From an uncultured Anaerolineales bacterium (GTDB taxonomy: Bacteria; Chloroflexota; Anaerolineae; B4-G1; SLSP01): a DNA stretch of 45,358 nt. The position numbers and the translations under genes are program-made. The notes under the pieces were generated by a model. It searched no databases. It saw only the letters and a program-made list of their open reading frames with translations, and was not told the origin of the DNA. The stretch is from positions 1 through 45,358 of the forward strand of contig CAYXVS010000001.1 in NCBI GenBank assembly GCA_964468735.1, written 5' to 3'. Each line of letters opens with the position of its first letter. The first letter of the stretch is position 1. Below, one piece after another: positions 4,895-35,647 of the stretch.

Positions 4895-4904
4895 AGTTCA
4901 GTCC

Positions 4905-8741: not shown

Positions 8742-8765
8742 GGCAACACCTAAAACTCGCAGGAT

Positions 8766-8860
8766 TAGGTAGTTCCAGAAATTAAAACCTCCCCAACCTG
8801 ATGCTTTTTCATCAGAAAACAGGTCGTTTTTGGGAGATTTATTTTCTTGGAACGGCCTTA
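8766..8860 (+). repeat. ~96-nt palindromic interspersed element (MITE-like), copy 1
   Basis: TTAGGTAGTTCCAGAAATTAAAACCTCCCC...TGGGAGATTTATTTTCTTGGAACGGCCTTA. The two arms are imperfect reverse complements, with a central CTGATG/CATCAG hairpin. Near-identical to 17795-17890 and, in reverse complement, to 31125-31221. Confidence 0.8.
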
Positions 8861-8965
8861 AAGCACGTTTTTTCATGCCAACTTGCTCCCTTCCGTCATT
8901 CACGACGAAAAATTCAAGTACGCTCTCCGCATAACAGGGGATCATCGGAGCGAAAGCTGCAACAC

Positions 8966-8996
8966 TTAGGTAGTTCCAGAAATTAAAACCTCCCAA
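8966..8996 (+). repeat. Half copy (left arm only) of the ~96-nt palindromic element
   Basis: TTAGGTAGTTCCAGAAATTAAAACCTCCCAA is essentially identical to the left arm at 8766-8796. No right arm follows. Confidence 0.75.
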
Positions 8997-9065
8997 CTCG
9001 CATGTTGTGAGAATCGCCGCGATCCTCGCCAACGGCGGTTTGGGTCATCATATTACGCGCCTCAG

Positions 9066-14701: not shown

Positions 14702-15625
14702 CTACTGAGCTGCCAGCTTATCGAAGAGATCGTGGAAGATGGCGTTGCGATTCACCCATTGCGCCTCGCGGACGAGGCGCCGCGTCGCGTCGTGCGTCCA
14801 CGTCAGATCGTCGTTCAATATCGGGCTGGGCACGAGCGCGCTCTTGACCCACTCCGGCGCGACGAGATAGGCCACCGCCGCGAGATCCCAAATCTCCTTG
14901 GCCCACGCATAGTGATCATCGCGATAGGCCTTGAAGAGCACAACCAGGTCATCGCCGATGGCGCTTTTGCCCTGGACATAGCGCTCCAGCTCTGGCGCCG
15001 TCGTCAGCATGTGCGAGGCGACCGGATAGCACGGCACGCGCACCAGCGGTACGCCCGCATCCAACACCACGCGGGCGGCTAACGGATCTTGTTGCAGGTT
15101 GAACTCCTGATTGTGCGGCCAATGCGAGGCATGCCCGCCCAGCCACACCACCACGATCCGCTCGGCGATCTCCGGCGCCAGCAGCAGCGCGGAGGCGATG
15201 TTGGTGATCGCGCCGATGGCGACGACGTAGAGCGGCGCAGGGCCGGCCTTCGCGCAGGCGATCAAATCCTCCACGGCCTCGCTCTCGACCGGGGCATCCA
15301 GGTCGGTCAGATAGCGCGTCGCGCCGCGATAGACGAATCCCTCCGGCGCGACCTCCAACTGGGCCAACAGGCGCACGATCTCCTCATAGCTCTGCTCCAT
15401 CCCATCCGCCGGGCTGTTGGATCGACCGTTGTAGAAGGGCGCGGCGTAAATCGCCTCGACCGCCAAGCGCGCGGGGGAGAGCATCGCGTAGACGAGCGCG
15501 AACTGGTCGTCGATCTCGTTGGCCGTGTCGGTGTCCAGCACCATCCGCACGCGCGCCGTGGGCGGCGTCAGGCGGGCGCGCCGTTGCGCCTCGGTCAAAG
15601 ATGGAAACGATGGAAAATCGCTCAT
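14702..15625 (-). CDS. Nucleoside hydrolase (IUNH family)
   Basis: 307-aa ORF with the N-terminal aspartate cluster VLDTDTANEIDDQFAL (DxDxxxDD). Confidence 0.85.
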   Translation of the reverse strand: MSDFPSFPSLTEAQRRARLTPPTARVRMVLDTDTANEIDDQFALVYAMLSPARLAVEAIYAAPFYNGRSNSPADGMEQSYEEIVRLLAQLEVAPEGFVYRGATRYLTDLDAPVESEAVEDLIACAKAGPAPLYVVAIGAITNIASALLLAPEIAERIVVVWLGGHASHWPHNQEFNLQQDPLAARVVLDAGVPLVRVPCYPVASHMLTTAPELERYVQGKSAIGDDLVVLFKAYRDDHYAWAKEIWDLAAVAYLVAPEWVKSALVPSPILNDDLTWTHDATRRLVREAQWVNRNAIFHDLFDKLAAQ

Positions 15626-15627
15626 TA

Positions 15628-16347
15628 TTACTCCTCCTGTTCATCAGATATTGAGTCCAACAGCCCCCGAATCTGGCGGAAGACATCGTCGAACATCTCC
15701 AGCGTGAGCAGGCCCGTCTGGGTGTTCTGCCGGCTCGGATGATACGAGGCGATCAGCGTCGGCAGCGGATCGGGCAGCGGATAGATCTTCCCGTGCTCGA
15801 ATTTGAGACCGCGCACGGCCTGCTGCTGGCCCTGCTCACGCAACAGACGCAGGTAATCCTTGAAAGCCACGTGGCCCAACGCCAAGACGACCTGTGTCTC
15901 CGTCAGGAGCGCCAACTCGCGCGCCAAAAAGGGGCGGCAGTTGTGGCGCTCCTGCGCCTGGGGTCGATTCTGCGGCGGGACGCAGCGCACCACGGCGGTG
16001 ATGAAGACATCATCCAGGCGGAGGCCATCGCCGCGATGGGTGGCCGTAGGTTGATTGGCGAATCCCGCGCGATGCAGCGCGCCGAAGAGCGTCTCGCCGG
16101 AGCTATCGCCCGTGAACATCCGCCCGGTGCGGTTCGAGCCGTGGGCGCCCGGCGCCAGCCCGACGATGACGACGCGGGCCTGACGGTCGCCGAATCCGGG
16201 CACCGGCTGGCCCCAATAGTCCCAATCCTCGTAGGCGCGGCGCTTGGTGCGCGCAACCTCCTCGCGCCACGCGACCAGGCGTGGGCATTGGCGGCAGACG
16301 ATAATCTCGTGATTAAGATGCTCCCACGTCTCTGGGGGATGATCCAT
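15628..16347 (-). CDS. udgB: Uracil-DNA glycosylase superfamily protein, family-5 (UdgB)-like, Fe-S type
   Basis: 239-aa ORF. CRQCPRLVAWRE cysteine motif and VIVGLAPGAHGSNRTGRMFTGD. GLAPG in place of the family-4 GEAPG points to family 5. Confidence 0.75.
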   Translation of the reverse strand: MDHPPETWEHLNHEIIVCRQCPRLVAWREEVARTKRRAYEDWDYWGQPVPGFGDRQARVVIVGLAPGAHGSNRTGRMFTGDSSGETLFGALHRAGFANQPTATHRGDGLRLDDVFITAVVRCVPPQNRPQAQERHNCRPFLARELALLTETQVVLALGHVAFKDYLRLLREQGQQQAVRGLKFEHGKIYPLPDPLPTLIASYHPSRQNTQTGLLTLEMFDDVFRQIRGLLDSISDEQEE

Positions 16348-16380: not shown

Positions 16381-17613
16381 CTACGCCGTAAACTTGCGCC
16401 GCATTTGAGTCAGGTAGGCCTCCGCCTCCTCATACCGCGCGAACGCTCGCTCGACGGCGCGGAACTCAGGCGTGTGCGCGTACCGCCGCCCGTTGACGAC
16501 GCTCACGCCCAATTGCTTGTGGAGCATCTCGTGATACATCACAAAATCGATCACGTAGCGCGGCACGGGGACGGCATCTAAGGTGATACTCAACATCAAT
16601 GTGTCGGTGTGCGCGTTATAGTGGCCCATCTTGCGCTCGGTGAGCGTCTTATTCCAGACCAGGCGCGGGCGGTCGAGTTGGCCATCGAAGTAGGCGTTGT
16701 TGACGCGCTCAAAGACCTCCGCCAGATCGTAGTGCTGGCCCTGCGTGGCCGTCGATAGCTCCGCCGTGGTCATCGCGAGGTCGGTCGTCACATCCGCAAA
16801 CGGCTCCGAGACCGCGTACGCTTTACATCGATGCTGATAAGCGTCGTCCTCGTAGCCCAGCGCGGCGTGCATCAGCGCGCGCAGCATCTTATCCGGCGCG
16901 CCGATGAAGCCCTCGTGGAGCGCGACGTCGATATATTGCTCCGTGAGTCGCGTGCGCCACAGCGCGGAACTGACGTAAAATTGGACGTGCAAAGCGCGCT
17001 CGCGATGCGAGGCAGGCAGATGCTGACGAGAGTGGGGCTTCTTGCCCCAGCTCAAGACCGTGGACAAGGCCGTCAGATGCTGAGCCAACGTCTCCGGCGC
17101 GCTCAAGTAGCGCAGCCATTGATAGCCGCGTCGCGAGCGGATGGGCAAGTGCGCGGGACGCCCGTGCTGCTCCTCGCACAGGCCCGCAATGGCATCCGCA
17201 TCGCCGCGCAAGGAAGACGCCAAGTCGACGACCTCCGCATCCGTCGGTTCCCAGGCCGGCTGCTGACGCGCCAAATCCGCCAACTTCGACTGATAGTAAT
17301 TGACCGTGCTGATAATCCCGCTGACGCGCACGTGAGGCGCGGGTGATTGATCCGCCGCCCGTTCAGGGATATTATCCAGATCGAGGCCCTTGAGGTAGCG
17401 ATAGGCGCGGCGCGAGGGCGCAGGCAGGTCGCGCGGCGTGCATCGATGCTGACGGCAGATGCGCTCGACCTGCTGCACGCCATCCGCCACCAGCGCACGG
17501 AAGTCGTCCTGCTGCTCCGCCGGCACACCCGCACTGATTTGCTCGCGAGCGTAGTTCATAAAGCGCACCAGTCCTTGGATGCGAAGCTTCGATTTTGATT
17601 TTCGTTTGGTCAT
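16381..17613 (-). CDS. SprT-like HExxH zinc metalloprotease with a long internally duplicated N-terminal region
   Basis: C-terminal ...YFDGQLDRPRLVWNKTLTERKMGHY...MYHEMLHKQLG...HTPEFR fits the SprT-like domain. I place the start at ATG 17613 (MTKRKSKSK...). The ORF-track start at 17754 reads through an 8-mer tandem repeat and stays possible, because no clear SD precedes either start. Confidence 0.65.
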   Translation of the reverse strand: MTKRKSKSKLRIQGLVRFMNYAREQISAGVPAEQQDDFRALVADGVQQVERICRQHRCTPRDLPAPSRRAYRYLKGLDLDNIPERAADQSPAPHVRVSGIISTVNYYQSKLADLARQQPAWEPTDAEVVDLASSLRGDADAIAGLCEEQHGRPAHLPIRSRRGYQWLRYLSAPETLAQHLTALSTVLSWGKKPHSRQHLPASHRERALHVQFYVSSALWRTRLTEQYIDVALHEGFIGAPDKMLRALMHAALGYEDDAYQHRCKAYAVSEPFADVTTDLAMTTAELSTATQGQHYDLAEVFERVNNAYFDGQLDRPRLVWNKTLTERKMGHYNAHTDTLMLSITLDAVPVPRYVIDFVMYHEMLHKQLGVSVVNGRRYAHTPEFRAVERAFARYEEAEAYLTQMRRKFTA

Positions 17614-17664
17614 GATATTAGAGAGTGTAGCATGAAAGCGCCCAAGCGAAAGGGAGGGAGAGGA

Positions 17665-17712
17665 GGAGTAAGGGAGTAGGGGAGTAGGGGAGTAAGGGAG
17701 TAGAGGAGTTTG
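17665..17712. repeat. Six tandem 8-mers GGAGTARG (minus-strand sense CYTACTCC)
   Basis: GGAGTAAG GGAGTAGG GGAGTAGG GGAGTAAG GGAGTAGA GGAGTTTG, read directly. It lies 52-99 nt upstream of the ATG at 17613. Confidence 0.85.
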
Positions 17713-17794
17713 GAACTCCCTAAACGGGAGCGACGGCTGATTGTCGGAAAGCATCCTGCCGCGCCCCGCGCCGAGGATTGAAATCCCCGGCTAC

Positions 17795-17890
17795 TAAGGT
17801 AGTTCCAGAAATTAAAACCTCCCAAACCGGATGCTTTTTCCTCAGAAAACTAGCTGTTTTTGGGAGATTTATTTTATTGGAACGGCCTAA
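17795..17890 (+). repeat. ~96-nt palindromic interspersed element (MITE-like), copy 2
   Basis: TAAGGTAGTTCCAGAAATTAAAACCTCCCAAACCGGATGCTTTTTCCTCAGAAAAC...TGGGAGATTTATTTTATTGGAACGGCCTAA. About 90% identical by eye to copy 1. Confidence 0.8.
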
Positions 17891-17895
17891 GCGCA

Positions 17896-18010
17896 AGTCA
17901 ACTAAAGTTGACTCAATTTCCACGTGGATTTCTGGCTTTCAGTCGGTCTTTAGCCGACTTCAGCTTTTAGCCTGCGATTCATCCGCAGGCGCGGGCGACG
18001 CAAGTTCGTC
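17896..18010. repeat. Cluster of four short independent hairpins
   Basis: AGTCAAC-TAAA-GTTGACT (17896-17913), AGTCGG-TCTTTAG-CCGACT (17941-17959), CCTGCG-ATTCATC-CGCAGG (17971-17989), GACG-CAAGTT-CGTC (17997-18010). Confidence 0.7.
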
Positions 18011-18045
18011 TTTTCCTACGATAAAACGTCACACCCCTAGCTAAA

Positions 18046-18074
18046 CTGGTAAGTTTGATGTTTGAGAGTATAAT
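18046..18074 (+). promoter_or_regulatory. Candidate promoter of the TPR/J/GrpE operon (perfect -10, weak -35)
   Basis: TATAAT at 18069-18074. The best -35 at 17-nt spacing is CTGGTA (3/6). AT-rich context 95 nt upstream of the ATG at 18169. Confidence 0.3.
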
Positions 18075-18100
18075 CTTACTTAGAAGAGGTTTATTAAGAT

Positions 18101-18128
18101 TACCCCCCATACCTCAACCAGGGGGGTA
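18101..18128 (+). promoter_or_regulatory. 5'-leader hairpin TACCCCCC-N12-GGGGGGTA upstream of the TPR gene
   Basis: Perfect 8-bp stem (18101-18108 / 18121-18128) between the candidate -10 and the RBS, followed by ATTTACTAT. Confidence 0.5.
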
Positions 18129-18168
18129 ATTTACTATACGAGATTTCTATCACGGGAGAAAGTGATTT

Positions 18169-20379
18169 ATGGCAAAAAGACGCAATCGACAGGGCGCGGC
18201 GAGACTCCGAGAGCGAGGGCACCGCGCATTCCTTGAAGGCGACTATGACACGGCCATCGACCTGTGGCAGCGCGTCGGCGAACAGTTTAAGAAGATGCAG
18301 CCCAAACGGATCTTCGCGGAGGCCTACTTTCGACGCGGCGTCGAGCGCATTCATCAGCAGGATAAAGTGAGGGCCGGGGTGGAGGATCTCCGGCGCGCAT
18401 TGGAGATGTACCCCGATGACCTTCGGTTCACCTATCATCTGGGCTTGGGCCTACATCTACAAGGCGATCAAGCCGGGGCGCACCGGATTTACGTGAGTTT
18501 GCGCAAAAAAGAGTCCGAATTCGCCGAGCGGGTAACGTTTCCCCTATCACTGGCCTTGCTCCAGCAAGAGAGATCTCCAGAGGAGCACCCGGTGTGGGCC
18601 GATTTGACCGAGACCGAGCGGGCGATGTTGCGCGATGTTCAGACATTCCGACGCCGCCCCTACAAATTGGATGACGCCGCGCCGCCGCTGTGGCATGGCG
18701 GGGTGGCATTGGATGAGGGAGAGCTGGACAAGGCCGCCTCGCTGCTCAACGAGGCGTTGGAGACCTCCGATACAGCGGAGAAGACGGCCTTCATCCATTA
18801 CTATCTGGGCAACACAGCCGGCCAACGAGAGGATTGGAAAGCAGCGCGACAGCACTGGTTAGAAGCCGAATCCCTGGGGATGGACTCTCCTGCGCTCACG
18901 CTCAACTTGGGAGAAAGCTTCCATCGGTTGGCGGAGGCGCGATTAGAGGAAGATGACGCGCAAGGCGCGCTGAAAGCAGCGCGTAAGGCCGCGCGCTATC
19001 GCCCCGATAAGCCCAGCCTCAAGGATTTGCGCGCGCAGGCGCACCATCGCTTGGGCTATCAAGCCGCCAATCAAGGGGATTGGTCGCAGGCGGAGGATCA
19101 CTGGCAAAAGGCTTATGATCTGGAGGACGGCAGCTTCCGAGCGGCCTATAACCTCGCGCTGGCCTACGAACGGCACGATGATTATCTCCAGGCCGGGGAG
19201 ACGTGGCGCGAAGTGCTGCGCCGCCGTCCCCGCAAAGACGATCATCGAGACGCCATCAGCGATGAGGAAGTCGCGCAACTGTGGAAGCGCGCAGCGCAGG
19301 CCTACGTCAAGGCCGGGGAATACGATGAGGCCGTCCACGTGTATCGCATGGCCGTGAAGTGGAATCCAGATAATTTGGAGACCCGAATGGAGCTAGTTCG
19401 CGGCTTATTAGATAATGGGCAATTTCAAGCCGCCGAAAACGAGCTGGAGCGCATCCTAGAACGCGATCCTGAGTACGTCCCCGCGCTCGTTTTGATGGGA
19501 GAAGTGCTCGCCGCCCACGCGCGGTGGTGGGAACAGAGCGCCGCGCCGAGCTATTTGCAACGCGCCCTAGAACTTGAGCCTAATAACCTGGAGGCCCAAC
19601 AGGCCCTGATCGATTACTGTCTCAATGAGGCGGAGGATGGCTTGCGGTGGGGCAACGTCGAATATGCTTACGAGATGCTACAGCAGGCATTGGACTATCA
19701 ACCCAAAAACGTGGATGTGCTCACACTCCTGGGCCGTTGCCATGTGATGGCCGATGACATGGATGAAGTGCAAGCATGCGTGGACAGGATCTTGGATCGA
19801 GATAAGCTCACGATGAAGGAATATATGGCGGGCCTCGAACTATGGCTGATGGCCAGGAAATCGGATAAAGCCGCTGAGGTTATGGCGCACGCCGAAAAGA
19901 CGCTGCCCGAGGTCCCGCCCGACGCCTATATGGCGATTGGCACCTATTACGTTCAAGACACGCGCTATACAGAAAGGGAAGGCGTCGAACTGGCGCAGGA
20001 GTGGTTTGAGAAAGCCATAGAGAAAAGCGGGCCAAATTCGCTGATCCTGCTCAAGATCGGCGAAATGTTATCCATGATAACCCAGCAACATGAGCTGGCC
20101 GAAGAATATCTCAATCGCGCCATCGAGGCGGATCAAAAACCCAGCGCGGCGTACACAACCTTGGCGTTGATCGCGTTGCGTCAAGAGGACGAACGCCAAT
20201 CCCGGCGTTATTTGAGAAAAGCAGAAGCTATAGCGCGTCGCGAGAATGACCGAGAAGAGTTGAACCGCATCCAAATGGTTCGTGATATGCTGACAATGCC
20301 GCCCGGACTGTTGAACATGTTGCTCAATAATCCGTTCGGCCCATTCGGCCCCGGCGGCCCCTTCTCGGACGAATTTTAG
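18169..20379 (+). CDS. Large tetratricopeptide-repeat (TPR) protein with G/F-like C-terminal tail
   Basis: 736-aa ORF. Repeated 34-aa A/Y/L/W-patterned TPR units throughout (e.g. AAYNLALAYERHDDYLQAGETWREVLRRRP). Tail NPFGPFGPGGPFSDEF. Confidence 0.85.
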   Translation: MAKRRNRQGAARLRERGHRAFLEGDYDTAIDLWQRVGEQFKKMQPKRIFAEAYFRRGVERIHQQDKVRAGVEDLRRALEMYPDDLRFTYHLGLGLHLQGDQAGAHRIYVSLRKKESEFAERVTFPLSLALLQQERSPEEHPVWADLTETERAMLRDVQTFRRRPYKLDDAAPPLWHGGVALDEGELDKAASLLNEALETSDTAEKTAFIHYYLGNTAGQREDWKAARQHWLEAESLGMDSPALTLNLGESFHRLAEARLEEDDAQGALKAARKAARYRPDKPSLKDLRAQAHHRLGYQAANQGDWSQAEDHWQKAYDLEDGSFRAAYNLALAYERHDDYLQAGETWREVLRRRPRKDDHRDAISDEEVAQLWKRAAQAYVKAGEYDEAVHVYRMAVKWNPDNLETRMELVRGLLDNGQFQAAENELERILERDPEYVPALVLMGEVLAAHARWWEQSAAPSYLQRALELEPNNLEAQQALIDYCLNEAEDGLRWGNVEYAYEMLQQALDYQPKNVDVLTLLGRCHVMADDMDEVQACVDRILDRDKLTMKEYMAGLELWLMARKSDKAAEVMAHAEKTLPEVPPDAYMAIGTYYVQDTRYTEREGVELAQEWFEKAIEKSGPNSLILLKIGEMLSMITQQHELAEEYLNRAIEADQKPSAAYTTLALIALRQEDERQSRRYLRKAEAIARRENDREELNRIQMVRDMLTMPPGLLNMLLNNPFGPFGPGGPFSDEF

Positions 20380-20394
20380 GAGGTATGAGATAAA

Positions 20395-20811
20395 ATGATG
20401 GCAGAGAGAAGTTTTCAAACGCCGAGTTTAGGCGATGAGGCGAATGTACCGGAGCCGAATTTTGAAAGTGAAGACCCCTATGCGGTGTTGGGATTGCAGC
20501 GCGGCGCTTCGCGGCGACAGGTAAAGCACGCCTACTTTCGATTAGTGCGCGAGCATCCGCCGGAAGAGGATGCCGCCACGTTCAAGTTAATCCGCGCCGC
20601 CTATGAGAAGTTACGCACCGAGGACGCCAAAGCCGAGACCGATCTCTTCCTCTTCCAGCCGCCGCCGCCCTGGCGACCGCGTAAACGGCGTCGGAACCCC
20701 GACTTGGACTTCCATTCCGAGCATATCTGGAAGTTGCTGGAGCTGCATGGCGATCTAGGGCGACGCGACTTCGAGGAGGATTATCGCAAGGTGGGGTTGT
20801 ACGATGAGTGA
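20395..20811 (+). CDS. Small J-domain-only protein with HPP instead of the HPD motif
   Basis: 138-aa ORF. DPYAVLGLQRGASRRQVKHAYFRLVREHPPEEDAATFKLIRAAYEKL is a J domain. The codons CAT CCG CCG at 20554-20562 give HPP. AGGAGG upstream. Confidence 0.8.
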   Translation: MMAERSFQTPSLGDEANVPEPNFESEDPYAVLGLQRGASRRQVKHAYFRLVREHPPEEDAATFKLIRAAYEKLRTEDAKAETDLFLFQPPPPWRPRKRRRNPDLDFHSEHIWKLLELHGDLGRRDFEEDYRKVGLYDE

Positions 20812-21526
20812 TCGCCGGTTAGTATGGGCGACGTTGGCCGACCTACTATCCCAGGTGGAGAAAAGCTCCACATCGACCACCGGCGCGAACGGCAAAAACG
20901 GCGCCCAATTGGAGAAATTAGAGCAGGAGATCCGCAAGCTGGGGAAGACCCAATACAAGGCGAACATGCTGACGGAATCCCAGGCAGATCGCTTGCAATC
21001 CGCCCTGCAATCCTTGCAGGAGCAACGGAGCCGCGAGGAGCAAGCTCTCGAGGCTTTGATCGAAACCGAGGTGGCGGAGGCCAAGCAAGCATGGCTCTCC
21101 GCCCTCCTGCCCACGTTGGACGGCCTGGACGCCGCGATTGCCAATGGCAAGCAGTACTTGGCCCAGCGCGACAAGGTCGCCCAATCAGGAAGACTCAAGC
21201 CCGAGCAGGCTTACTTAGTCTCGCCGGCCGACCGCGCGAAGTTGGCCAACTGGTTAGACGGCTTGCGCATGGTGCGCGAGCGGCTGCTATCGATGTTGGA
21301 AGCTGAGGGCGTCACGCCCATTCCCACGGTGGGCCACAAGTTCGATCCCTACCAGCACGTGGCCGTGGAGAAAATCACAGCGGACGACGGTGCGCCGGGC
21401 GTCATCGCCGCCGAGGAACGACGCGGCTATCGCACGCCGGCCGGCGTGTTGCGCTATGCCGAGGTGATCGTCTACGGAGAAAAAACCCGCAACCTTGAGG
21501 CAAGAAAAGAGAAACAGCTAGCGTAA
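20804..21526 (+). CDS. grpE: GrpE-family nucleotide exchange factor
   Basis: 240-aa ORF. Long N-terminal coiled coil, LLPTLDGLDAAI, and the C-terminal beta domain GVTPIPTVGHKFDPYQHVAV...RRGYRTPAGVLRYAEVIV. Its start overlaps the J-protein stop by 8 nt. Confidence 0.85.
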   Translation: MSDRRLVWATLADLLSQVEKSSTSTTGANGKNGAQLEKLEQEIRKLGKTQYKANMLTESQADRLQSALQSLQEQRSREEQALEALIETEVAEAKQAWLSALLPTLDGLDAAIANGKQYLAQRDKVAQSGRLKPEQAYLVSPADRAKLANWLDGLRMVRERLLSMLEAEGVTPIPTVGHKFDPYQHVAVEKITADDGAPGVIAAEERRGYRTPAGVLRYAEVIVYGEKTRNLEARKEKQLA

Positions 21527-21551
21527 GGCTAAAGATAACCATTTAGTCTTG

Positions 21552-21636
21552 AGGTGCAACGCACTTTTACGCCTGAAAAATAGTTATGGATTGCGTTAGA
21601 TATACTTTAAATACCTGACGTAAGTGCGTTGCACCT
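21552..21636 (+). promoter_or_regulatory. Long inverted repeat (15 + 3 bp stem, 47-nt AT-rich loop) in the grpE-hsp70 spacer
   Basis: AGGTGCAACGCACTT-TT-ACG (21552-21571) pairs with CGT-AAGTGCGTTGCACCT (21619-21636). No U-tract follows on either strand. Confidence 0.6.
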
Positions 21637-21703
21637 GGCTTGCTCATAAAACAGGTACGACTAAACATCTAAAAACAAATGAGAAGAGGAGAAATTAGAA
21701 AAC

Positions 21704-23434
21704 ATGGGTCCCATTGTAGGTATTGACTTAGGAACGACGAATTCAGGTGTATCGATTGTCAAAGATGGCCGCCCGGTGATGCTCCCCAACGGCGATGAGC
21801 GCATCATCCCCTCGGTGGTGGCCTATGCGCCGGGCGGCCATTGGCTGGTGGGCACGCCCGCCCGCAACCAATACGTCCTCAACCCGGAGAACACGGTGCG
21901 CTCCATCAAGCGCTCGATGGGCACGGCGCGCCGCGTCACACTGGGCAATCACGAATTCAGCCCGCAGGAGATCTCGGCCTTTATCCTGCGCGAGTTAAAG
22001 AGCATCGCCGAGGAGAACTTAGGGACGGAAGTTTCCGACGCGGTCATCACCGTGCCGGCTTATTTCTCCGATGCGGCGCGGCAGGCCACGCGCGACGCCG
22101 GTCGCGTCGCGGGCTTCAACGTGCGGCGGATCATCAATGAGCCGACGGCGGCGGCGCTGGCCTATGGCCTCGACCGCACCACCGACCAGATAGCCTTGGT
22201 CTACGACCTGGGCGGCGGCACCTTCGATGTCTCCCTGGTGGAGATGATGGACGGCATCGTCGAAGTGCGCGCCAGCCACGGCAACACCCACCTCGGCGGC
22301 GACGACTTCGATGAGCGGTTGGCTGCGCTGGTGGCCGATGCCTTTGCGGCAGAGCACGGCATCGACCTGCGCGAGGATCGCCGGGCGTGGGCGCGGCTGT
22401 TGCGCGCCGCCGAGGCCGCCAAGATCGAGCTGTCGTCGCAGCCCTTCGCCTGGATCAAAGAGGAGTACATCGCGGAGAAGAACGGGGCTCCGCTGCACCT
22501 GGAGCACGAAATCGGCCGCCATGAGTTTGAGGAGGAGATTGCCGATCTCCTGGAGTTGACCATCGAATCGGTCGATCAGGTGTTAGCAGATGCGGAGGTC
22601 GAGCCGGATGAACTGACGCAAATCCTGATGGTCGGCGGCTCCTCGCGCATCCCGGCGGTGTGGGAGCTGATGGCCAATCACATCGGCATCGAGCCGGTGA
22701 TGTCCCTCAATCCAGAGGAGGTCGTCGCCCTGGGCGCCGGCGTCCAGGCGGGCATTATCGCCGGCGAACCGATTGACGCGATTCTAGTCGATGTCACGCC
22801 GCACTCCCTAGGCATCGCCGTGGCGGAGATTCGCGGCGGGCGCATCGTCTCCGATCGCTACCAAGTCCTGATCCACCGCAATACTACCATCCCCGTGACC
22901 AAAGCCGATGTCTTTAACACCCTCTTTCCCGGCCAGGACACCATCAAGATCGAAGTCTATCAGGGAGAACACCCCATCGCCTCGCAGAACACGCCCCTCG
23001 GCAACTTTTTAATCACCGATCTAGAGCCAGAAGAACCGGGGGAGTTGGCCGAAGTCACCGTCGAGTTCGACTTCAACGTGAACGGTATCCTGCACGTGAC
23101 GGCCAAAGATCGCCAGACGGGCAAGGAGGAAGCGATCACCGTCGAGGCGACCAAACAGCGCCTCAGCGAGGAGGAGCTTCTGGAGGCCCGCCACGCCCTG
23201 CGCGCCTACGATGAGGTCAACGTAGATGTCGAAACCCCCATCGACCCGGCCTTGCTCGATCGGGCGGGCCATCTCCTGGAATTAGAAGGGGACGAAGCGC
23301 TGGCCCCGGACGACCGGGAGGAATTGGAGGCCCTCCTCGCCGATATTGAAGCCGCCCGTCAGGAAGGGGATTTCGCGTGGCAGGAGCGACTCGCGGATGA
23401 TCTACTGGATATTCTCTTCGATTTGGAAGCGTAG
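21704..23434 (+). CDS. Hsp70-family chaperone, short form (576 aa)
   Basis: IVGIDLGTTNSGVS, VITVPAYFSDAARQATRDAGRVAGFNVRRIINEPTAAALAYGLD, YDLGGGTFDVS, THLGGDDFD, VGGSSRIPAV and VDVTPHSLGIAV are all present. The C-terminal lid is shorter than in DnaK and ends in ...DDLLDILFDLEA. Confidence 0.92.
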   Translation: MGPIVGIDLGTTNSGVSIVKDGRPVMLPNGDERIIPSVVAYAPGGHWLVGTPARNQYVLNPENTVRSIKRSMGTARRVTLGNHEFSPQEISAFILRELKSIAEENLGTEVSDAVITVPAYFSDAARQATRDAGRVAGFNVRRIINEPTAAALAYGLDRTTDQIALVYDLGGGTFDVSLVEMMDGIVEVRASHGNTHLGGDDFDERLAALVADAFAAEHGIDLREDRRAWARLLRAAEAAKIELSSQPFAWIKEEYIAEKNGAPLHLEHEIGRHEFEEEIADLLELTIESVDQVLADAEVEPDELTQILMVGGSSRIPAVWELMANHIGIEPVMSLNPEEVVALGAGVQAGIIAGEPIDAILVDVTPHSLGIAVAEIRGGRIVSDRYQVLIHRNTTIPVTKADVFNTLFPGQDTIKIEVYQGEHPIASQNTPLGNFLITDLEPEEPGELAEVTVEFDFNVNGILHVTAKDRQTGKEEAITVEATKQRLSEEELLEARHALRAYDEVNVDVETPIDPALLDRAGHLLELEGDEALAPDDREELEALLADIEAARQEGDFAWQERLADDLLDILFDLEA

Positions 23435-23550
23435 CCGTTCAACCGCACCAAGGAGGTGATCATCCAAAGAGATACCCCAACATTAGCCGGATGACGAAGC
23501 ATCGTAAATAAGCCGTGCGAGAATCTACATTTCACCATGTTCCATTCCCT

Positions 23551-23569
23551 ATGTATCCATATGTATCCA
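23551..23569 (+). promoter_or_regulatory. Direct repeat ATGTATCCA x2 (period 10) just upstream of the BMP lipoprotein RBS
   Basis: ATGTATCCAT ATGTATCCAA at 23551-23570, followed by TGGAGGAG and the ATG at 23585. Confidence 0.5.
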
Positions 23570-23584
23570 ATGGAGGAGAAAAAG

Positions 23585-24601
23585 ATGTTACGCAAACGCT
23601 GGAGTTTGATGCTGGTAGTCTTAACTATGTTGGTAGCGAGCGTTGGATGTGCGCCCCAGGGCGGCGGTGGCGGCGACGAATCGGGAGTCCCCTTCATCTA
23701 CGCGACCTTCGCCACGCCCATCGAGGAACCGTGGGACGGCGTGATTCACGAGGCGCTGCAAGCGGCCGCCGATGCCGGTGAGATCCGCTACGAATGGACG
23801 GATGACATCGGCTACGCGGGCGATATGGAGCGTGTGCTCCGCGAGGTGGCCGAGCAGCAAAAGCCCGATGCGATTTTTGGCGACGCCTTCGGCAACGAGG
23901 AAGCCGTGCGCCGCGTCGGGGCCGAGTATCCCGACATCGCTTTCGTCTTTGGCTCTGGCCTGGGGCCGGCGGAGCCAAATGTCTCCGTCTTCGATAACTG
24001 GATTCACGAGCCGGCCTACCTCTGCGGCCTCATCGCGGGCGGCATGACGGAATCCAACGTGATCAGCGTCGTAGGCGGCCATCCCGTCCCGGAGGTCAAC
24101 CGCATCGTCAACGCCTACATCGACGGCGTGAAAGAGGTCAACCCCGATGCGGAGGTCTTGGTGACCTTCATCAACAGCTGGTTCGATCCCGCCGCCGCGA
24201 AGGAAGCGGCCCTGGCGCAGATCGATGCCGGCGCCGATGTCCTCTTCGCCGAGCGATTCGGCGTCATCGAGGCCGCCGTGGAGAACGACCTGTGGGCCTT
24301 CGGCAATATGAGCGATCAGTACGAGCTGGGGCCAGATCACGTCCTGACCGGCCCGGTTTGGGATATGGGGCCGACCGTGGAGTATATCATCCAACAGATC
24401 AACGCCGGTTCCTACACCGCCCAGGACCTCAAGGATTTCAGCATGATGGGCAAAGGCGGCGCCCGCCTCGCGCCGTATCATGGCATGGATGAGTACATCC
24501 CCGACGACATTTTAGAATTGGTGGAGCAACGCCAACAAGAAATACTTGATGGCCTCTTCCGTGTGAACATCGATGAGGCCGCCCCCGCCCCAACCAACTA
24601 A
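23585..24601 (+). CDS. BMP-family (PnrA/Med-like) nucleoside-binding lipoprotein of an ABC importer
   Basis: The ORF track starts at 23537. ATG 23585 is preferred, because GGAGGAG lies 7 nt upstream and it yields the signal peptide MLRKRWSLMLVVLTMLVASVGC. The body matches the BMP family (EPAYLCGLIAGGMT, VVGGHPVPEVNRIVNAYIDG, DAGADVLFA). Confidence 0.85.
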   Translation: MLRKRWSLMLVVLTMLVASVGCAPQGGGGGDESGVPFIYATFATPIEEPWDGVIHEALQAAADAGEIRYEWTDDIGYAGDMERVLREVAEQQKPDAIFGDAFGNEEAVRRVGAEYPDIAFVFGSGLGPAEPNVSVFDNWIHEPAYLCGLIAGGMTESNVISVVGGHPVPEVNRIVNAYIDGVKEVNPDAEVLVTFINSWFDPAAAKEAALAQIDAGADVLFAERFGVIEAAVENDLWAFGNMSDQYELGPDHVLTGPVWDMGPTVEYIIQQINAGSYTAQDLKDFSMMGKGGARLAPYHGMDEYIPDDILELVEQRQQEILDGLFRVNIDEAAPAPTN

Positions 24602-24617
24602 CTCAATAAGCTCGATC

Positions 24618-24660
24618 TCCCTCTCCCCGTGATGTTGATCATCACAGGGAGAGGGATTTT
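24618..24660 (+). terminator. Intercistronic stem-loop/attenuator between the binding-protein and ATPase genes
   Basis: TCCCTCTCCCCGTGATG (24618-24634) / CATCACAGGGAGAGGGA (24640-24656). 17-bp stem with one mismatch and a 5-nt loop, followed by TTTT. Confidence 0.7.
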
Positions 24661-24682
24661 AAATTAAGCCATAGGAGGCCCT

Positions 24683-26230
24683 ATGCAACATATCGTCGAT
24701 ATGGAAGCTATCACCAAGCGATTTGGGCCGGTGGTGGCCAACGATCACGTGGATTTCGAGCTGCGCCCTGGCGAAATCCACGCGCTGCTGGGCGAAAATG
24801 GCGCGGGCAAGACCACGCTGATGCGCATCCTCTACGGTCTCTATCATCAAGATGAGGGCGAGATCTACGTCAACGGCGCGGCCGTCGAAATCCACTCACC
24901 CAAGGACGCGATCGCGCAGGGCATCGGGATGGTGACGCAGCACTTCGCGCTCGTGCCGCCGCTGACGGTGGCCGAAAATGTCGTGTTAGGCTTCACCGAC
25001 AGCTTCCGCCTCCATCGCGCCGAGACGGAACAGCGCGTGGCCGAGGCCGCGCATGCTTTTGGGCTGGATATCGCCCCTGGCGCGTTGGTGCGCCACCTCT
25101 CCGTGGGGCAGAAGCAGCGCGTGGAGATCCTCAAAGCGCTCTACCGCAACGCGCGCGTGCTCATCTTAGATGAGCCGACCGCAGTTCTGATCCCCCAGGA
25201 GGTCGACGTACTCTTCAAGACGCTGGAACGCCTGCGCCGCGATGGCCTCTCGGTGATCTTCATCAGCCACAAATTGGACGAGGTGATGGCGATCAGCGAC
25301 CGGGTGACCGTCCTGCGCGATGGCCACGTCGTGGGCACCGTCCCCACCGGCGCGGTGACCCCATCCGAACTGGCGCGGATGATGGTCGGGCGGGAGACCT
25401 TCGGCGTGACCCGCTCGTCGGAGGCTGCGCCGACGCAAGGGCCGCCAATGCTGGAGATGGCGGAGGTGTGGGCGGCGGACGAGCAGGACTTGCCCGCGCT
25501 CAAAGGGGTGGATCTGACTATCCAGGCCGGGGAGATTTTGGGCATCGCGGGCGTGGGCGGCAACGGCCAGACCGAGTTGGCCGAGGTGCTCAGCGGCGTG
25601 CGCCCCGTCACCCAAGGGCGCATCGTCGTCAGCGGCGCGGAGATGACGGGCGCATCACCGGCGCAATTGAGCGCCGCCGGCGTGGGCCGCATCCCGGAGG
25701 ATCGCCACGAGGGCCTCGTCGGCGAGTTGACCGTGGCGGAGAATTTAGCGCTGGAGCATCTGCACACCTTCGTCCAGGGCGGGCGCTTGGATCGGCAGGC
25801 CATCCGCGCGCACGCCGAGGCGCTGATCGACCAATTCCAGATCAAGGCGCGGCCCACAGATCGGACGCGGACGCTTTCCGGCGGCAATATGCAAAAGCTG
25901 CTGCTGGCGCGGGTGCTGTCGCGTCAGCCGGAGGTCGTGATCGCGCCCCAGCCGACGCGCGGCCTAGACGTGGGCGCGACGGAATACGTGCGACGTCAGT
26001 TGTTGGAACAGCGGGCGCGCGGCGCCGGCGTGCTCCTGATCTCCGAGGATCTGGATGAGATTCTGGCGCTCTCGGATCGCATCGCCGTGATGTACGAGGG
26101 CGAAATCGTCGGCGTGCTCCCGGCGCGCGAGGCCGACGTGGAGCATCTGGGCTTGATGATGTCGGGCGCGGTGCGTCAGACGCCCAAAACAGCGGCAGCA
26201 ACACAGAAGCAAGGAGCCGAGCCACTATGA
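24683..26230 (+). CDS. ABC importer ATPase with duplicated NBDs (sugar/nucleoside type)
   Basis: 515-aa ORF. Walker A GENGAGKTT and GVGGNGQTE, signatures LSVGQKQ and LSGGNMQK, Walker B LILDEPT. Confidence 0.9.
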   Translation: MQHIVDMEAITKRFGPVVANDHVDFELRPGEIHALLGENGAGKTTLMRILYGLYHQDEGEIYVNGAAVEIHSPKDAIAQGIGMVTQHFALVPPLTVAENVVLGFTDSFRLHRAETEQRVAEAAHAFGLDIAPGALVRHLSVGQKQRVEILKALYRNARVLILDEPTAVLIPQEVDVLFKTLERLRRDGLSVIFISHKLDEVMAISDRVTVLRDGHVVGTVPTGAVTPSELARMMVGRETFGVTRSSEAAPTQGPPMLEMAEVWAADEQDLPALKGVDLTIQAGEILGIAGVGGNGQTELAEVLSGVRPVTQGRIVVSGAEMTGASPAQLSAAGVGRIPEDRHEGLVGELTVAENLALEHLHTFVQGGRLDRQAIRAHAEALIDQFQIKARPTDRTRTLSGGNMQKLLLARVLSRQPEVVIAPQPTRGLDVGATEYVRRQLLEQRARGAGVLLISEDLDEILALSDRIAVMYEGEIVGVLPAREADVEHLGLMMSGAVRQTPKTAAATQKQGAEPL

Positions 26231-27294
26231 CCTTCCTCAAAGATAAATTTGTCCTGGAAAAAGTGACCTCACCGCCGGTGTGGATGCGCACCTTGATCCC
26301 CGTGCTGGCGCTCGTGGGTACCTTTATCCTCACCTCCGGGCTGATCCTCCTCTCTGGCGCGAATCCGCTGGAGGCCTACTACTACTTCCTAGTCGCGCCG
26401 CTCTCGACGCGCGTGGGCGTGTTGGAGGTGCTGGTGACCGCCACGCCGCTGATTTTGGCGGGCGTCGCGGTGACCTTCGCCTTCTCGGCGGGCTACTACA
26501 ACATCGGTGCGGAGGGGCAACTCTACGCCGGCGCGATCATGGCCGCGTGGTTGGGTACCGTGCTGGCCGGCGTCCCGTCCATCCTCGCCATCCCCCTCAT
26601 GCTGTTGGGCGGCTTCTTGGGCGGGATGGCGTGGGCCTTGATCCCGGCGCTCCTGCGTGTGAAGATGGCCGTCGACGAAGTGGTGACGACGCTGCTGCTC
26701 AACTCCGTGATGCTCTACATCGTCAGCGCGCTGTTGAACGGCCCCTGGCGCGATCCCGAATCGGGCTGGCCCCAATCCCCAGAGATCGAGATGTGCACGC
26801 GCCTGCCGAAGCTGATACCACGCTCACGGCTCAACCTGGGCTTCGTCATCGCCCTGCTCGCGCTGCTGATACTGTGGTTTGTGCTCACGCGCACGGGCTT
26901 CGGCCTGAAGATGCGGGCCGTCGGGCTGGGCAAGGCGGGCGCGCGCTTCGCCGGCGTCGAAGTGGAGCGCACGGTGCTCACCGCCGCGCTCATCAGCGGC
27001 GGCATAGCGGGCATCGTGGGCGTCTGCGAGGTGGCGGGCATTCAATTCCACCTCACCGGCGAAATCTCCCCCGGCTACGGCTATACGGGCATCATCATCG
27101 CCACGTTAGGCGCGCTGAACGCGCTGGGCGTGGGCGCGGCGGCGCTCTTCTTCGGCCTGGTCGATACGGGCGCGCAGACAGTGAGCCGCGCACTGGGCGT
27201 CCCGGTCTATTTGGGCGAGATCACCCAAGCGACGATGCTCCTGGTCACCCTGGGGATGTTCTTGCTGCAACGTTATCGCATTCGGAGGGCGTGA
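26227..27294 (+). CDS. ABC importer permease 1
   Basis: 355-aa polytopic ORF. It overlaps the ATPase stop by 4 nt. Typical BPD-2 type permease hydrophobicity. Confidence 0.85.
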   Translation: MTFLKDKFVLEKVTSPPVWMRTLIPVLALVGTFILTSGLILLSGANPLEAYYYFLVAPLSTRVGVLEVLVTATPLILAGVAVTFAFSAGYYNIGAEGQLYAGAIMAAWLGTVLAGVPSILAIPLMLLGGFLGGMAWALIPALLRVKMAVDEVVTTLLLNSVMLYIVSALLNGPWRDPESGWPQSPEIEMCTRLPKLIPRSRLNLGFVIALLALLILWFVLTRTGFGLKMRAVGLGKAGARFAGVEVERTVLTAALISGGIAGIVGVCEVAGIQFHLTGEISPGYGYTGIIIATLGALNALGVGAAALFFGLVDTGAQTVSRALGVPVYLGEITQATMLLVTLGMFLLQRYRIRRA

Positions 27295-28214
27295 TGGATA
27301 CATTTTTAGTCAACCTAATCGCGGCGACCTTACGAGTCGCCACGCCGTTGTTGTTAGCGGCGATTGGCGAGACCTACGCGGAGCGCGCGGGCATCCTGAA
27401 TCTGGGCATCGAGGGCACGATGTTCTTCGGCGCCTTCATCGGCTTTCTCGTCGGGGATCTCACCGGCTCGCTCTGGGTGGGCCTGCTGGCGGCCATCCTC
27501 AGCGGCGCGTTAGCCGGCCTGTTGATGGCGCTGCTCTCCGTCACCTTGGGCGTCAACCAGCACGTCTCCGGCCTGGGCATCACCCTGCTGCTGAGCGGAT
27601 TGGCGCTCTTCGGATTCCGCCTGCGCTACGGTGGGCGCTCGACGCCGCCGTCCATCGATCCATTTGGACAATGGGCGCCGCTGGCCAACGTGCCCATATT
27701 GCGCGTGCTCTTTCAACAGTACGCGCTGACCTACATCGCATTTCTCCTAATCGTGCCGCTGGCGTGGTGGCTGCTCTACCGCACCAGCTTCGGCCTCAAG
27801 ATCCGCGCGGTGGGCGAGAACCCGGAGGCCGCCGACGCGGCGGGCGTCAACGTCTTCGCAATCCGCTACCTGGCGCTGATGATCGGCGGCGCGCTGATGG
27901 GCGCGGGCGGCGCGTTCCTCTCCATCGCGCAGTTGGGCGCCTTCACCCACGGCATCATCGCCGGGCGGGGATGGGTCGCGCTGGCGCTGGTGATCTTCGG
28001 CAACTGGGACCCGCTCAAAGTGATGGGCGGCGCGTTGATCTTCGGCGGGACGTTTGCGCTGCAACTGCGCCTCCAGGCGATGGGCCTGCAACTCCCCGTC
28101 CCCTACGAGACCTTCTTAGCGCTGCCTTATCTGGTGACGATTGTCGCGCTGGTCATCGCCGGGCGGAACGCTTCGTATCCGGCGGCGCTGCTCCAGCCCT
28201 ATCGCCGGGAGTGA
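27294..28214 (+). CDS. ABC importer permease 2
   Basis: The real gene is the in-frame 3' part of track ORF 26280-28214, starting at ATG 27294 (MDTFLVNLIAATLRVATPLLLAAIGE...). Its start shares one nucleotide with the TGA of permease 1. Confidence 0.85.
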   Translation: MDTFLVNLIAATLRVATPLLLAAIGETYAERAGILNLGIEGTMFFGAFIGFLVGDLTGSLWVGLLAAILSGALAGLLMALLSVTLGVNQHVSGLGITLLLSGLALFGFRLRYGGRSTPPSIDPFGQWAPLANVPILRVLFQQYALTYIAFLLIVPLAWWLLYRTSFGLKIRAVGENPEAADAAGVNVFAIRYLALMIGGALMGAGGAFLSIAQLGAFTHGIIAGRGWVALALVIFGNWDPLKVMGGALIFGGTFALQLRLQAMGLQLPVPYETFLALPYLVTIVALVIAGRNASYPAALLQPYRRE

Positions 28215-28269
28215 TGGAGACGAGGTATATCGCGAACAACAGCTCTGGAGTCAAACAAGATAGAACATC

Positions 28270-35621: not shown

Positions 35622-35647
35622 TCTACTCTCCCTGGGCTAAAAACATT

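Follow-up and report, generated by a model that had tools for sequence, protein, structure and literature searches.

Is a bacterial Hsp70 gene that is preceded by genes for a GrpE, a very small J protein and a large tetratricopeptide repeat (TPR) protein the housekeeping dnaK of its host, or does it belong to a separate chaperone machine? The question is raised by four genes lying at positions 18169 to 23434 of contig CAYXVS010000001.1, from an uncultured Anaerolineales bacterium of the phylum Chloroflexota. We analysed positions 1 to 45,358 of this contig, a stretch hereafter called the window. An original prediction, made from the DNA letters alone, had favoured a dedicated system over the housekeeping one. 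Our results make it probable that the four genes encode a self-contained and specialised Hsp70 machine of the HscC lineage, which is additional to the housekeeping DnaK and is conserved as one operon (hereafter the module) across bacterial phyla.

The listing of open reading frames (ORFs) bears out the predicted layout of four co-directional genes, all on the + strand. The first ORF (18169-20379) encodes a large, soluble, all-helical TPR or solenoid protein of 736 residues, and the second (20395-20811) a J-like co-chaperone of 138 residues with a Pfam DnaJ domain. They are followed by the gene of a divergent GrpE-type nucleotide exchange factor of 240 residues with a long N-terminal helical region (20804-21526) and by that of an HscC-like Hsp70 of 576 residues with a Pfam HSP70 match (21704-23434). 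The spacing is also as it had been described: a gap of 15 nt separates the TPR and J genes, the GrpE start overlaps the J stop by 8 nt, and grpE and hsp70 are separated by a spacer of 177 nt which is indeed AT-rich (GC of 0.373 compared with 0.599 for the window). The GC of the module as a whole is 0.592. The Pfam matches of the four proteins are all far beyond chance. No transmembrane segment was detected in any of the four, which were thus all called soluble (the maximum Kyte-Doolittle value, KD19, of the TPR protein is 0.88).

The class of the Hsp70 is central to the question. The protein matches Pfam HSP70 with 528 bits and stays below the cut-offs of both NCBIfam DnaK equivalog models (NF001413, 584.9 against 648; TIGR02350, 580.2 against 822.55); NCBI names the members of its family "Hsp70 family protein". 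When all four proteins were aligned, it was 43% identical to Escherichia coli DnaK, 39% to HscA and 36% to HscC, and its best solved relatives are DnaKs (Geobacillus 2v7y, E 1.7e-141). The Hsp70 was searched against 1.84 billion cluster representatives, and a neighbour-joining (NJ) tree was computed from simple distances between 122 Hsp70s over 490 core columns. In this tree the window Hsp70 falls into a large group of proteins of about 565-610 residues that end in the motif (hydrophobic)2-[F/Y]-x-L-E; E. coli HscC is adjacent to this group, and the canonical DnaKs lie apart from it. Quartets paired it with HscC in 100 of 100 NJ bootstraps when E. coli DnaK and Heliorestis DnaK formed the other pair, and in 92 of 100 when DnaK and HscA did so. 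As E. coli HscC itself lies just outside the 57-member clade that carries the C-terminal motif, the two proteins would represent sister or related branches rather than orthologues. The equivalog scores and the bootstrapped quartets thus uphold the view that this Hsp70 is not a housekeeping DnaK.

Hsp70s of the HscC type are recognised by a length of 550-580 residues, by two losses (DnaK positions 76-101 and the loop of D211), by 4-8 extra residues in loop L1,2, by a shortened helix B and by a C-terminus in which acidic and aliphatic residues abound (Mayer 2021, PMC8215388). The window protein, with its 576 residues, is about 60 residues shorter than E. coli DnaK (638 residues), as had been noticed, and the Anaerolineae family members listed are mostly 565-600 residues long. 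In the alignment the region around DnaK 76-101 and the 208-211 loop are missing, and positions 208, 209 and 211 are gaps in 119 of 119 family members. Loop L1,2 of the beta part of the substrate-binding domain (SBD) carries an insertion of 8 residues, the segment counting 24 residues instead of the 16 of DnaK, both in the window protein and in 113 of 117 cross-phylum members. The lid is short, with a 16-residue helix B at 489-504 in the AlphaFold2 model, and neither the full-length lid nor the disordered tail of DnaK is present; the protein ends in the acidic/aliphatic sequence ...DDLLDILFDLEA. E. coli HscC, which is similarly short (556 residues), shares the absence of DnaK 76-101 and of the D211 loop, the L1,2 insertion (4 residues there and 8 here), the short lid and the acidic/aliphatic end. 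These marks place the Hsp70 on the HscC side of the family tree.

The claim of an intact ATPase also holds. D8, K70, E171, D194, T199 and D201, together with D393 of the linker, are invariant in the 119 family members, and so is R71. The same is true of R167, N170, T173 and Q378, which we take to be the J-domain contacts of the DnaK-DnaJ complex. K70, E171, R167, N170, T173 and D393 are invariant in the 117 cross-phylum Hsp70s as well. Since all the ATPase and allosteric residues that were checked are invariant, we consider the protein to be a working Hsp70 of the HscC lineage; to judge from these positions, it has every residue needed for ATP binding, for hydrolysis and for the coupling of its nucleotide-binding domain (NBD) to its SBD. 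The roles given to residues at the J and GrpE interfaces follow what has been described for E. coli DnaK.

We then looked at the features of the Hsp70 that concern nucleotide exchange. The segment of subdomain IIB that forms the "GrpE signature" loop comprises 26 residues in the window Hsp70 and in 117 of 117 cross-phylum members, compared with 26 in DnaK, 20 in HscC and 16 in HscA. The upper salt-bridge pair R55-E267 is kept (R or K at position 55 in 111 and E267 in 114 of the 117), whereas the lower pair of the cleft is lost in the family. E. coli HscC and HscA have the IIB loop deleted and no cleft salt bridges, and on this ground they are held to need no exchange factor (PMC8215388). The window family thus departs from HscC in one of its marks, the absence of the signature loop (around DnaK 290-295) and of the cleft salt bridges. 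The retained loop and upper salt bridge match the constant presence of a GrpE gene beside the Hsp70 gene. The product of this gene scores 84.4 bits with Pfam PF01025 (cut-off 25.8), its residues 31-223 covering profile positions 8-163 of 165, and it is far below the cut-offs of all 22 NCBIfam GrpE equivalog models (best, 58 compared with 137). Its best solved relative is the Geobacillus GrpE 4ani (E 4e-9), and with E. coli GrpE it shares about 24% identity in a stretch of 131 residues. Such matches identify it as a divergent GrpE, and all the module loci that were inspected have a GrpE gene at this place.

If the four genes form a unit, they should be found together in other genomes. All four proteins have their closest relatives in metagenome-assembled genomes of Anaerolineae (Chloroflexota). 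A scan anchored on the Hsp70, with one genome per GTDB species, gave 20 loci, all from Anaerolineae (Anaerolineales or Thermoflexales). The order TPR-J-GrpE-Hsp70 was found in 17 of the 17 loci whose Hsp70 is at least 67% identical and which have enough upstream DNA; the remaining three comprise one with J-GrpE-Hsp70 up to the contig edge, one that is uninformative and one lone Hsp70. The genes flanking the module differ between loci. A second scan, of metagenomes with an alignment of the Anaerolineae J proteins, gave 80 loci, and an Hsp70 gene lies 3' of the J gene in 50 of the 50 that have at least 1.5 kb of downstream DNA. Fourteen of the metagenome loci had been flagged automatically as being without TPR or GrpE; their coordinates show the gene in all of them except L087, which has only 581 nt of upstream sequence. 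In the complete Anaerolineae chromosome OZ241372.1 (locus L022, 6989-8737), a 60%-identical Hsp70 ending in LLDLLFDLE stands alone between ggt (gamma-glutamyltranspeptidase) and the ATP synthase (atp) operon, its partner genes being either elsewhere in the genome or lost in this lineage.

The module is not confined to Chloroflexota. A profile built from 23 diverse Hsp70s with the tail motif found matches named from Chromatiaceae (Thiorhodovibrio winogradskyi, Halochromatium roseum, Lamprobacter) and Gemmataceae. Seven of the eight loci inspected in this wider clade show the same gene order, with a protein of 620-872 residues that has faint or no TPR matches, a DnaJ-domain protein of 97-101 residues, GrpE and Hsp70. 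One of these module-bearing loci lies in the complete genome of T. winogradskyi (CP121472.1), a gammaproteobacterium, and another, L029, is probably from Planctomycetota, judging by its flanking gene families. The first genes of the two settings are homologous: the window TPR protein and the 620-872-residue proteins of the other phyla align collinearly (residues 12-704 against 24-742; hhalign probability 97.7%, E 1.5e-12). The gene order is therefore kept in the Anaerolineae, metagenome and cross-phylum loci, as expected of one conserved unit. The original prediction had named a sole Hsp70/GrpE set of the genome, lying inside the housekeeping DnaK clade and with TPR and J genes that are not syntenic with it in relatives, as the grounds for giving it up; the Hsp70 lies outside that clade, and both genes are syntenic in relatives and across phyla.

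Outside Anaerolineae the module looks as if it has a fifth member. A gene directly 3' of hsp70, often overlapping its stop, was present in six of the seven loci searched (L028, 8776-9120; L029, 8815-9102; L030, 8737-9057; L031, 8789-9094; L033, 6073-6396; L034, 5709-6104). It encodes a protein of about 95-131 residues with an N-terminal zinc ribbon (M-x-R-C-P-x-C-R-A...C-x-R-C, CxxC...CxxC), the rest being helical and TPR-like. In L030 (WYCW01000001.1, 891216-906952) the HscC-like Hsp70 and this zinc-ribbon partner form an orphan pair, lacking solenoid, J and GrpE genes, and the surroundings contain IS110 and Y2 transposases, an integrase fragment, an rve integrase and a TIR-domain gene. Because the orphan lies among transposases and integrases, part of the module appears to have been moved there by mobile DNA.

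What does the large protein at the head of the operon do? It matches 27 Pfam families of the TPR type (TPR_2, 102 bits), with the best repeats at residues 365-480, and its conservation across 20 Anaerolineae orthologues peaks at residues 331-450 (0.74-0.80). The N-terminus is basic (MAKRRNRQ...), and the C-terminus consists of a "PPGLLNMLL" segment followed by a Gly/Pro/Phe-rich, acidic-aromatic tail (...NPFGPFGPGGPFSDEF). By analogy with the eukaryotic Hop and CHIP, a TPR clamp reading the Hsp70 tail had been proposed. AlphaFold2, run with 61 family sequences (mean predicted local distance difference test score, pLDDT, of 79.8), gives a lid made of helix 489-504, a low-confidence linker and helices 515-526, 535-554 and 557-575, the last one reaching residue 575 of 576. 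DDLLDILFDLEA, which had been taken for a tail, is thus modelled at the end of the last lid helix and not as a free, disordered extension: the last 19 residues are helical, with a pLDDT of about 74-80. Neither an EEVD motif nor a disordered linker is present at the C-terminus of the Hsp70, and a weak check by eye of TPR residues 366-470, the block that is conserved best, revealed no evident K-N-N-K-R carboxylate-clamp pattern. Altogether, the Hop/CHIP-style clamp is neither supported nor excluded by this analysis. The extreme C-terminus itself probably matters, since the (hydrophobic)2-[F/Y]-x-L-E motif is pinned there in all the phyla sampled: it lies 0-2 residues from the end in 88 of 100 Anaerolineae sequences and in 101 of 101 cross-phylum sequences that carry it.

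Another role is possible for the solenoid, namely that of the client. It would then form a scaffold or other assembly whose building or dismantling is the task of the dedicated Hsp70, with the J protein acting like auxilin and the hydrophobic segment of the flexible tail serving as the Hsp70 site. In the clathrin heavy chain, QLMLT is such an Hsp70 binding site. Several features of the module agree with this idea. The J protein itself lacks a domain for client binding. A conserved "PPxLLNMxL" precedes the low-complexity Gly/Pro/Phe/acidic end in Anaerolineae, and tails of similar composition occur in other phyla. The J gene follows the solenoid gene in tight or translational coupling (the 15-nt gap here, a 4-nt overlap in L033), and a one-to-one linkage across phyla fits a single dedicated substrate. 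However, there is no evidence that the solenoid oligomerises, the sequence of the tail is poorly conserved between phyla, and HscC is reported to prefer positively charged peptides and not leucine (PMC8215388), so that LLNMLL fits poorly. We therefore regard this alternative as one to keep in mind, though it is on the unlikely side.

The J-like protein departs in two respects from what had been predicted. It passes Pfam DnaJ (PF00226) with 37.8 bits for a cut-off of 27.8, the profile of its family matches 42 solved J domains, and the AlphaFold2 model shows the J fold, with helices at 28-32, 40-53 and 60-86 and a pLDDT of about 90. The protein is organised as a disordered N-terminus (1-26), the J domain (27-86) and a conserved extension (84-135). 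We found 393 homologues, the 120 listed spanning 113-148 residues. A J domain with HPP instead of HPD had been announced. The absence of a canonical HPD was confirmed, but the register was wrong. Indeed, when the protein was aligned with DnaJ, HscB and DjlC of E. coli and with the J proteins encoded by modules from other phyla, P55-P56-E57 fell on HPD and the His on Y32 of DnaJ; the HPP reading was thus dropped for PPE. The four columns read Y-H-P-D in DnaJ and HscB, C-H-P-E in DjlC and H-P-P-E in the window protein, and C-P-P-E, Y-S-P-E, F-P-P-E, F-S-P-E, S-P-P-D or F-P-P-D in other module J proteins. In 121 Anaerolineae sequences the first column holds Y (105) or H (15) and the second P (90), A (15), S (12) or T (4), while the P and the E that follow are found in all 121. 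The triads of 74 metagenome copies are PPE (54), SPE (17), APE (2) and TPE (1). The family can thus be described by [P/S/A/T]-P-[E/D], PPD being found in two other phyla, and a His at the aligned position, as in the triad of functional J-domain proteins (JDPs), occurs in no member among the 121 Anaerolineae, the metagenome and the cross-phylum sequences. In addition, the helix II-III loop has six residues fewer than that of DnaJ, and DjlC shows exactly the same shortening.

The description of this protein as a J domain only was half right: the G/F, zinc-finger and client-binding domains are missing, but a conserved C-terminal extension of about 50 residues is present. T82, D83, L84, L86, F87, W93, R96, L104, G119 and D129 are invariant in 85 sequences, and the consensus of the extension, TDLFLFQPPxPWxPRKRRRxxDLxxH...HGDLGRxDFxxDYR, includes TDLFLFQPP and PRKRRR. 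AlphaFold2 models the extension mostly as coil with one helix (108-118) and a pLDDT of 57-69. High conservation combined with low pLDDT would be typical of a segment that folds on a partner.

How should a J domain without its His be understood? The HPD His is regarded as indispensable for the stimulation of the ATPase (PMC13254874), and the only functional exception to HPD that is accepted is the HPE of DjlB and DjlC, which are partners of HscC (PMC10410713; PMC13254874). The J-like protein might therefore be a regulator of the Pam16 type, which occupies the J site or holds the Hsp70 on the solenoid without triggering hydrolysis, activation being left to a JDP encoded elsewhere or to the client. 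Apart from HPE, variants of HPD are considered incapable of stimulating Hsp70, and a regulatory precedent exists in Pam16 (PMC13254874); the lack of His throughout the family points the same way. On the other hand, the Pro-Glu/Asp pair and the R167 patch of the Hsp70 are both invariant, as expected of a productive contact of the HPD type, the E. coli HscC partners function with HPE, and no second J gene was found within the module at any locus. We consider a purely regulatory J protein unlikely. The fixation of P-E across Anaerolineae, with PPE, SPE or PPD in other phyla, suggests that the triad is under selection. Taken together, our results describe a real and widespread variant of the HscC-type Hsp70 system, which is coupled to GrpE and has a PP[E/D] J domain and a solenoid partner.

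Whether this system is additional to a housekeeping DnaK or replaces it was considered next. The four genes could in principle be the DnaK-DnaJ-GrpE set of a divergent lineage, the Anaerolineae, next to an unrelated TPR gene. The solved relatives of the Hsp70 that match best are DnaKs, JGI and similar sources label family members "molecular chaperone DnaK", and no other dnaK lies within the 45-kb window. Against this stand the equivalog scores and the grouping with HscC, a J protein devoid of HPD, G/F, zinc-finger and C-terminal client-binding domains, and a TPR gene that is syntenic at every assessable locus and across phyla, including Chromatiaceae. Furthermore, published work points to paralogues existing alongside a bona fide DnaK (PMC11019930; PMC13580251): a survey of 130 genomes found no DnaK-derived paralogue in a genome without one (PMC13580251), Chloroflexi are the phylum with the highest rate of dnaK paralogues (PMC11019930), and DnaK pairs are listed for three cultured members of the Anaerolineae, Anaerolinea thermolimosa, Longilinea arvoryzae and Leptolinea tardivitalis (PMC11019930, Data Set S2). 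The housekeeping explanation is thus very improbable. As the Hsp70 falls outside the DnaK clade, the module is present in a gammaproteobacterium and DnaK pairs occur in cultured Anaerolineae, indirect evidence favours an additional rather than a sole Hsp70 system. Finally, the module could be carried by a mobile element or serve in anti-phage defence by means of an Hsp70-like ATPase, as the transposases, integrase fragment and TIR-domain gene around the orphan of L030 and a resolvase 6 kb from the module in L001 might suggest. This is hardly credible, since PADLOC recognises no system (TPR, J and GrpE have no match and the Hsp70 only a partial one of 21.7 bits to PDC-M61B), the flanks are ordinary, variable chromosomal genes, the GC of the module equals that of its surroundings and the window has no tRNA or integrase nearby.

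On the reading that we prefer, a specialised HscC-lineage machine, the small J protein and the solenoid would act jointly as a two-piece co-chaperone. The J domain would dock at the interface of NBD, linker and SBD-beta, its invariant Pro-Glu/Asp pairing with the invariant R167/N170/T173 patch of the Hsp70, and in the absence of the canonical His it would probably give a weaker or conditional trigger of the ATPase. The J extension, the (hydrophobic)2-[F/Y]-x-L-E end of the Hsp70, or both, would bind the solenoid, and the latter would provide client selection or localisation. The dedicated GrpE would reset an Hsp70 whose hold on ADP is still tight, in contrast to that of E. coli HscC; the need for it may come from the IIB loop and the upper salt bridge of the cleft, which this branch, but not E. 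coli HscC, has retained and which presumably slow ADP release.

Several observations weigh against this reading. Docking, client choice and partner binding are all inferred. With the HPD His missing, the J-like protein may not stimulate the ATPase at all. The Hsp70 motif proposed as a contact lies in a helix and not in a free tail. The J extension is about 50 residues long in Anaerolineae and about 35 in other phyla, and neither the Anaerolineae loci nor the window have the fifth, zinc-ribbon gene, so that the details of docking may vary. The tree is an NJ tree and not a maximum likelihood one. Lastly, the analysis covered 45 kb of the source genome, in which no second dnaK, dnaJ or grpE, and thus no canonical DnaK, was found. 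A bolder version of the preferred reading sees here a fourth and so far unrecognised class of bacterial Hsp70 machine beside DnaK, HscA and HscC, which would be GrpE-dependent, driven by a His-less PP[E/D] J domain and dedicated to one solenoid of about 700-870 residues that it assembles, disassembles or localises in the manner of Hsc70 and auxilin on clathrin. We find this extension doubtful.

Comparison with known systems helps to situate the module. Its closest precedent is bacterial and not eukaryotic: in the E. coli locus hscC-djlC-ybeU-ybeT-djlB, YbeT, a helical protein with Sel1 repeats, is encoded between two HPE J proteins. The helix II-III loop is shortened in DjlC as it is in the window J protein, and in both of them the Pro is followed by an acidic residue (HPE and PPE, respectively). 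The differences are that the E. coli locus contains no GrpE gene whereas the module family always has its own, along with the IIB loop and the upper salt bridge, and that DjlB and DjlC keep the His, comprise about 480 residues and are membrane-associated, whereas the window J protein has no His, comprises 138 residues and is soluble. With the canonical DnaK-DnaJ-GrpE set the module has in common that a complete three-part Hsp70 cycle is encoded together and that the ATPase, linker and J-docking residues are conserved. It differs from this set by an Hsp70 of another clade with a short lid and no disordered tail, a reduced J protein, a GrpE below the equivalog cut-offs and an obligatory TPR protein of 736 residues.

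In Myxococcus xanthus, MxDnaK2 (SglK) is likewise a second, tail-less Hsp70 that is co-transcribed with a dedicated upstream GrpE, MXAN_6672; it is not heat-induced and is functionally distinct from the housekeeping DnaK (PMC11019930). We did not adopt MxDnaK2/GrpS as the same system, because its description sets it apart: it is a DnaK duplicate in a bicistronic operon for which no TPR or J gene is reported. The partner JDPs listed for MxDnaK2 all have HPD except MXAN_3349 (APD), whereas the module J protein has none. TPR-containing class C JDPs ("DnaJ-TPR", for example DNAJC3 and DNAJC7) combine TPR and J in one functional unit, as the module does. Their domain order, TPR then J, is mirrored by the gene order of the module. 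DnaJ-TPR is among the most populated class C architectures (PMC10410713). In contrast to DNAJC3 and DNAJC7, or to Hop and CHIP, the TPR and J parts of the module are separate polypeptides, its J domain lacks HPD, and its Hsp70 lacks EEVD and a disordered linker. As for the type IV J-like proteins (Pam16/Tim16, DNAJB13 and the Plasmodium type IV JDPs), they too keep the J fold with an altered triad (PMC13254874). What distinguishes the module protein is a conserved change of His to Pro or Ser with Pro and Glu/Asp kept, its bacterial origin and its place in an operon with its own Hsp70 and GrpE.

The 177-nt spacer between grpE and hsp70 contains a perfect inverted repeat of 15 nt (AGGTGCAACGCACTT / AAGTGCGTTGCACCT), which lies at 21552-21566 on the + strand and at 21622-21636 on the - strand and is present in two copies in the window when 0.06 are expected. 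The RNA of positions 21527-21710 folds into a long hairpin (-44.6 kcal/mol, z -3.15). A 12-mer of the repeat is also found in the grpE-hsp70 spacer of L013 (6827) and L014 (6853), two other species whose Hsp70s are 72-73% identical to that of the window, and once more in L013 just 3' of hsp70 (8878); it is absent from the closest relatives. The repeat is possibly an intercistronic RNA hairpin or a REP-like (repetitive extragenic palindromic) element or palindrome, and the hairpin could serve in mRNA processing or stability, uncoupling the level of hsp70 from those of the upstream genes. A search for CIRCE, the operator of HrcA, gave no match with three mismatches allowed, a sigma-70 scan of 17600-23700 gave no promoter, and terminator-like sites were fewer in this interval than in shuffled sequence. 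Rfam and tRNA scans of the window gave no match.

The rest of the window contains ordinary chromosomal genes (histidine kinases, a serpin, ABC transporters, a formiminotransferase). The divergent upstream gene (16381-17754, - strand) encodes a protein of 457 residues whose C-terminal part matches an SprT-like metalloprotease domain (31 bits) and whose N-terminal part contains the motif "PLLPYS" in tandem. It was ruled out as a module member and is treated as unrelated, since it does not adjoin the module in the relatives L001 and L003. Beyond it, a nucleoside hydrolase gene and a gene of the uracil-DNA glycosylase family (14702-16347, - strand) lie on this flank of the module, and a Bmp/PnrA-type (nucleoside) ABC transporter operon (23537-29232, + strand) forms the other. 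E. coli hscC also adjoins a nucleoside hydrolase gene, rihA; this likeness is probably a coincidence, because the flanks differ in all the relatives. The gene of a full-length bacterial serpin of 428 residues (11236-12522, - strand; Pfam Serpin, 389 bits) has a hypothetical region on one side and the gene of an ABC exporter on the other. Four large PAS/GAF histidine kinases (904, 1375, 537 and 890 residues), one of them a hybrid with a receiver domain, are encoded on the - strand at 2180-9032 and 33377-38320, which is an unusually dense set of sensor kinases for 45 kb.

Reviews recognise three types of prokaryotic Hsp70, DnaK, HscA and HscC, and hold that HscA and HscC dispense with exchange factors (PMC8215388). 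An HscC-like Hsp70 that keeps GrpE features and has its own GrpE bears on the latter statement. No description of a TPR-J-GrpE-Hsp70 operon was found in the literature searched, and a prior mention in the main survey of bacterial JDPs (Barriot et al. 2020) is possible; the bacterial derivatives of DnaK have been called largely unexplored "dark matter" in a 2026 review. The J family may have gone unnoticed because one large survey of J proteins set aside sequences without a full HPD from its main analysis (PMC10410713). HPE is the only change of HPD said to be tolerated, and whether the other deviations are accidents or were selected is stated as not known (PMC13254874). A J domain without His, keeping Pro-Glu/Asp across Chloroflexota and the other loci sampled (clade proteins being named from Pseudomonadota and Planctomycetota), bears on this question. 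Since its parts are small, soluble and encoded together, and since T. winogradskyi is a named host with a complete genome, the module is a tractable system in which to test both a His-less J domain and the purpose of HscC-type Hsp70s. If the PP[E/D] J domain truly triggers ATP hydrolysis, the rule that the His of HPD is indispensable would be overturned.

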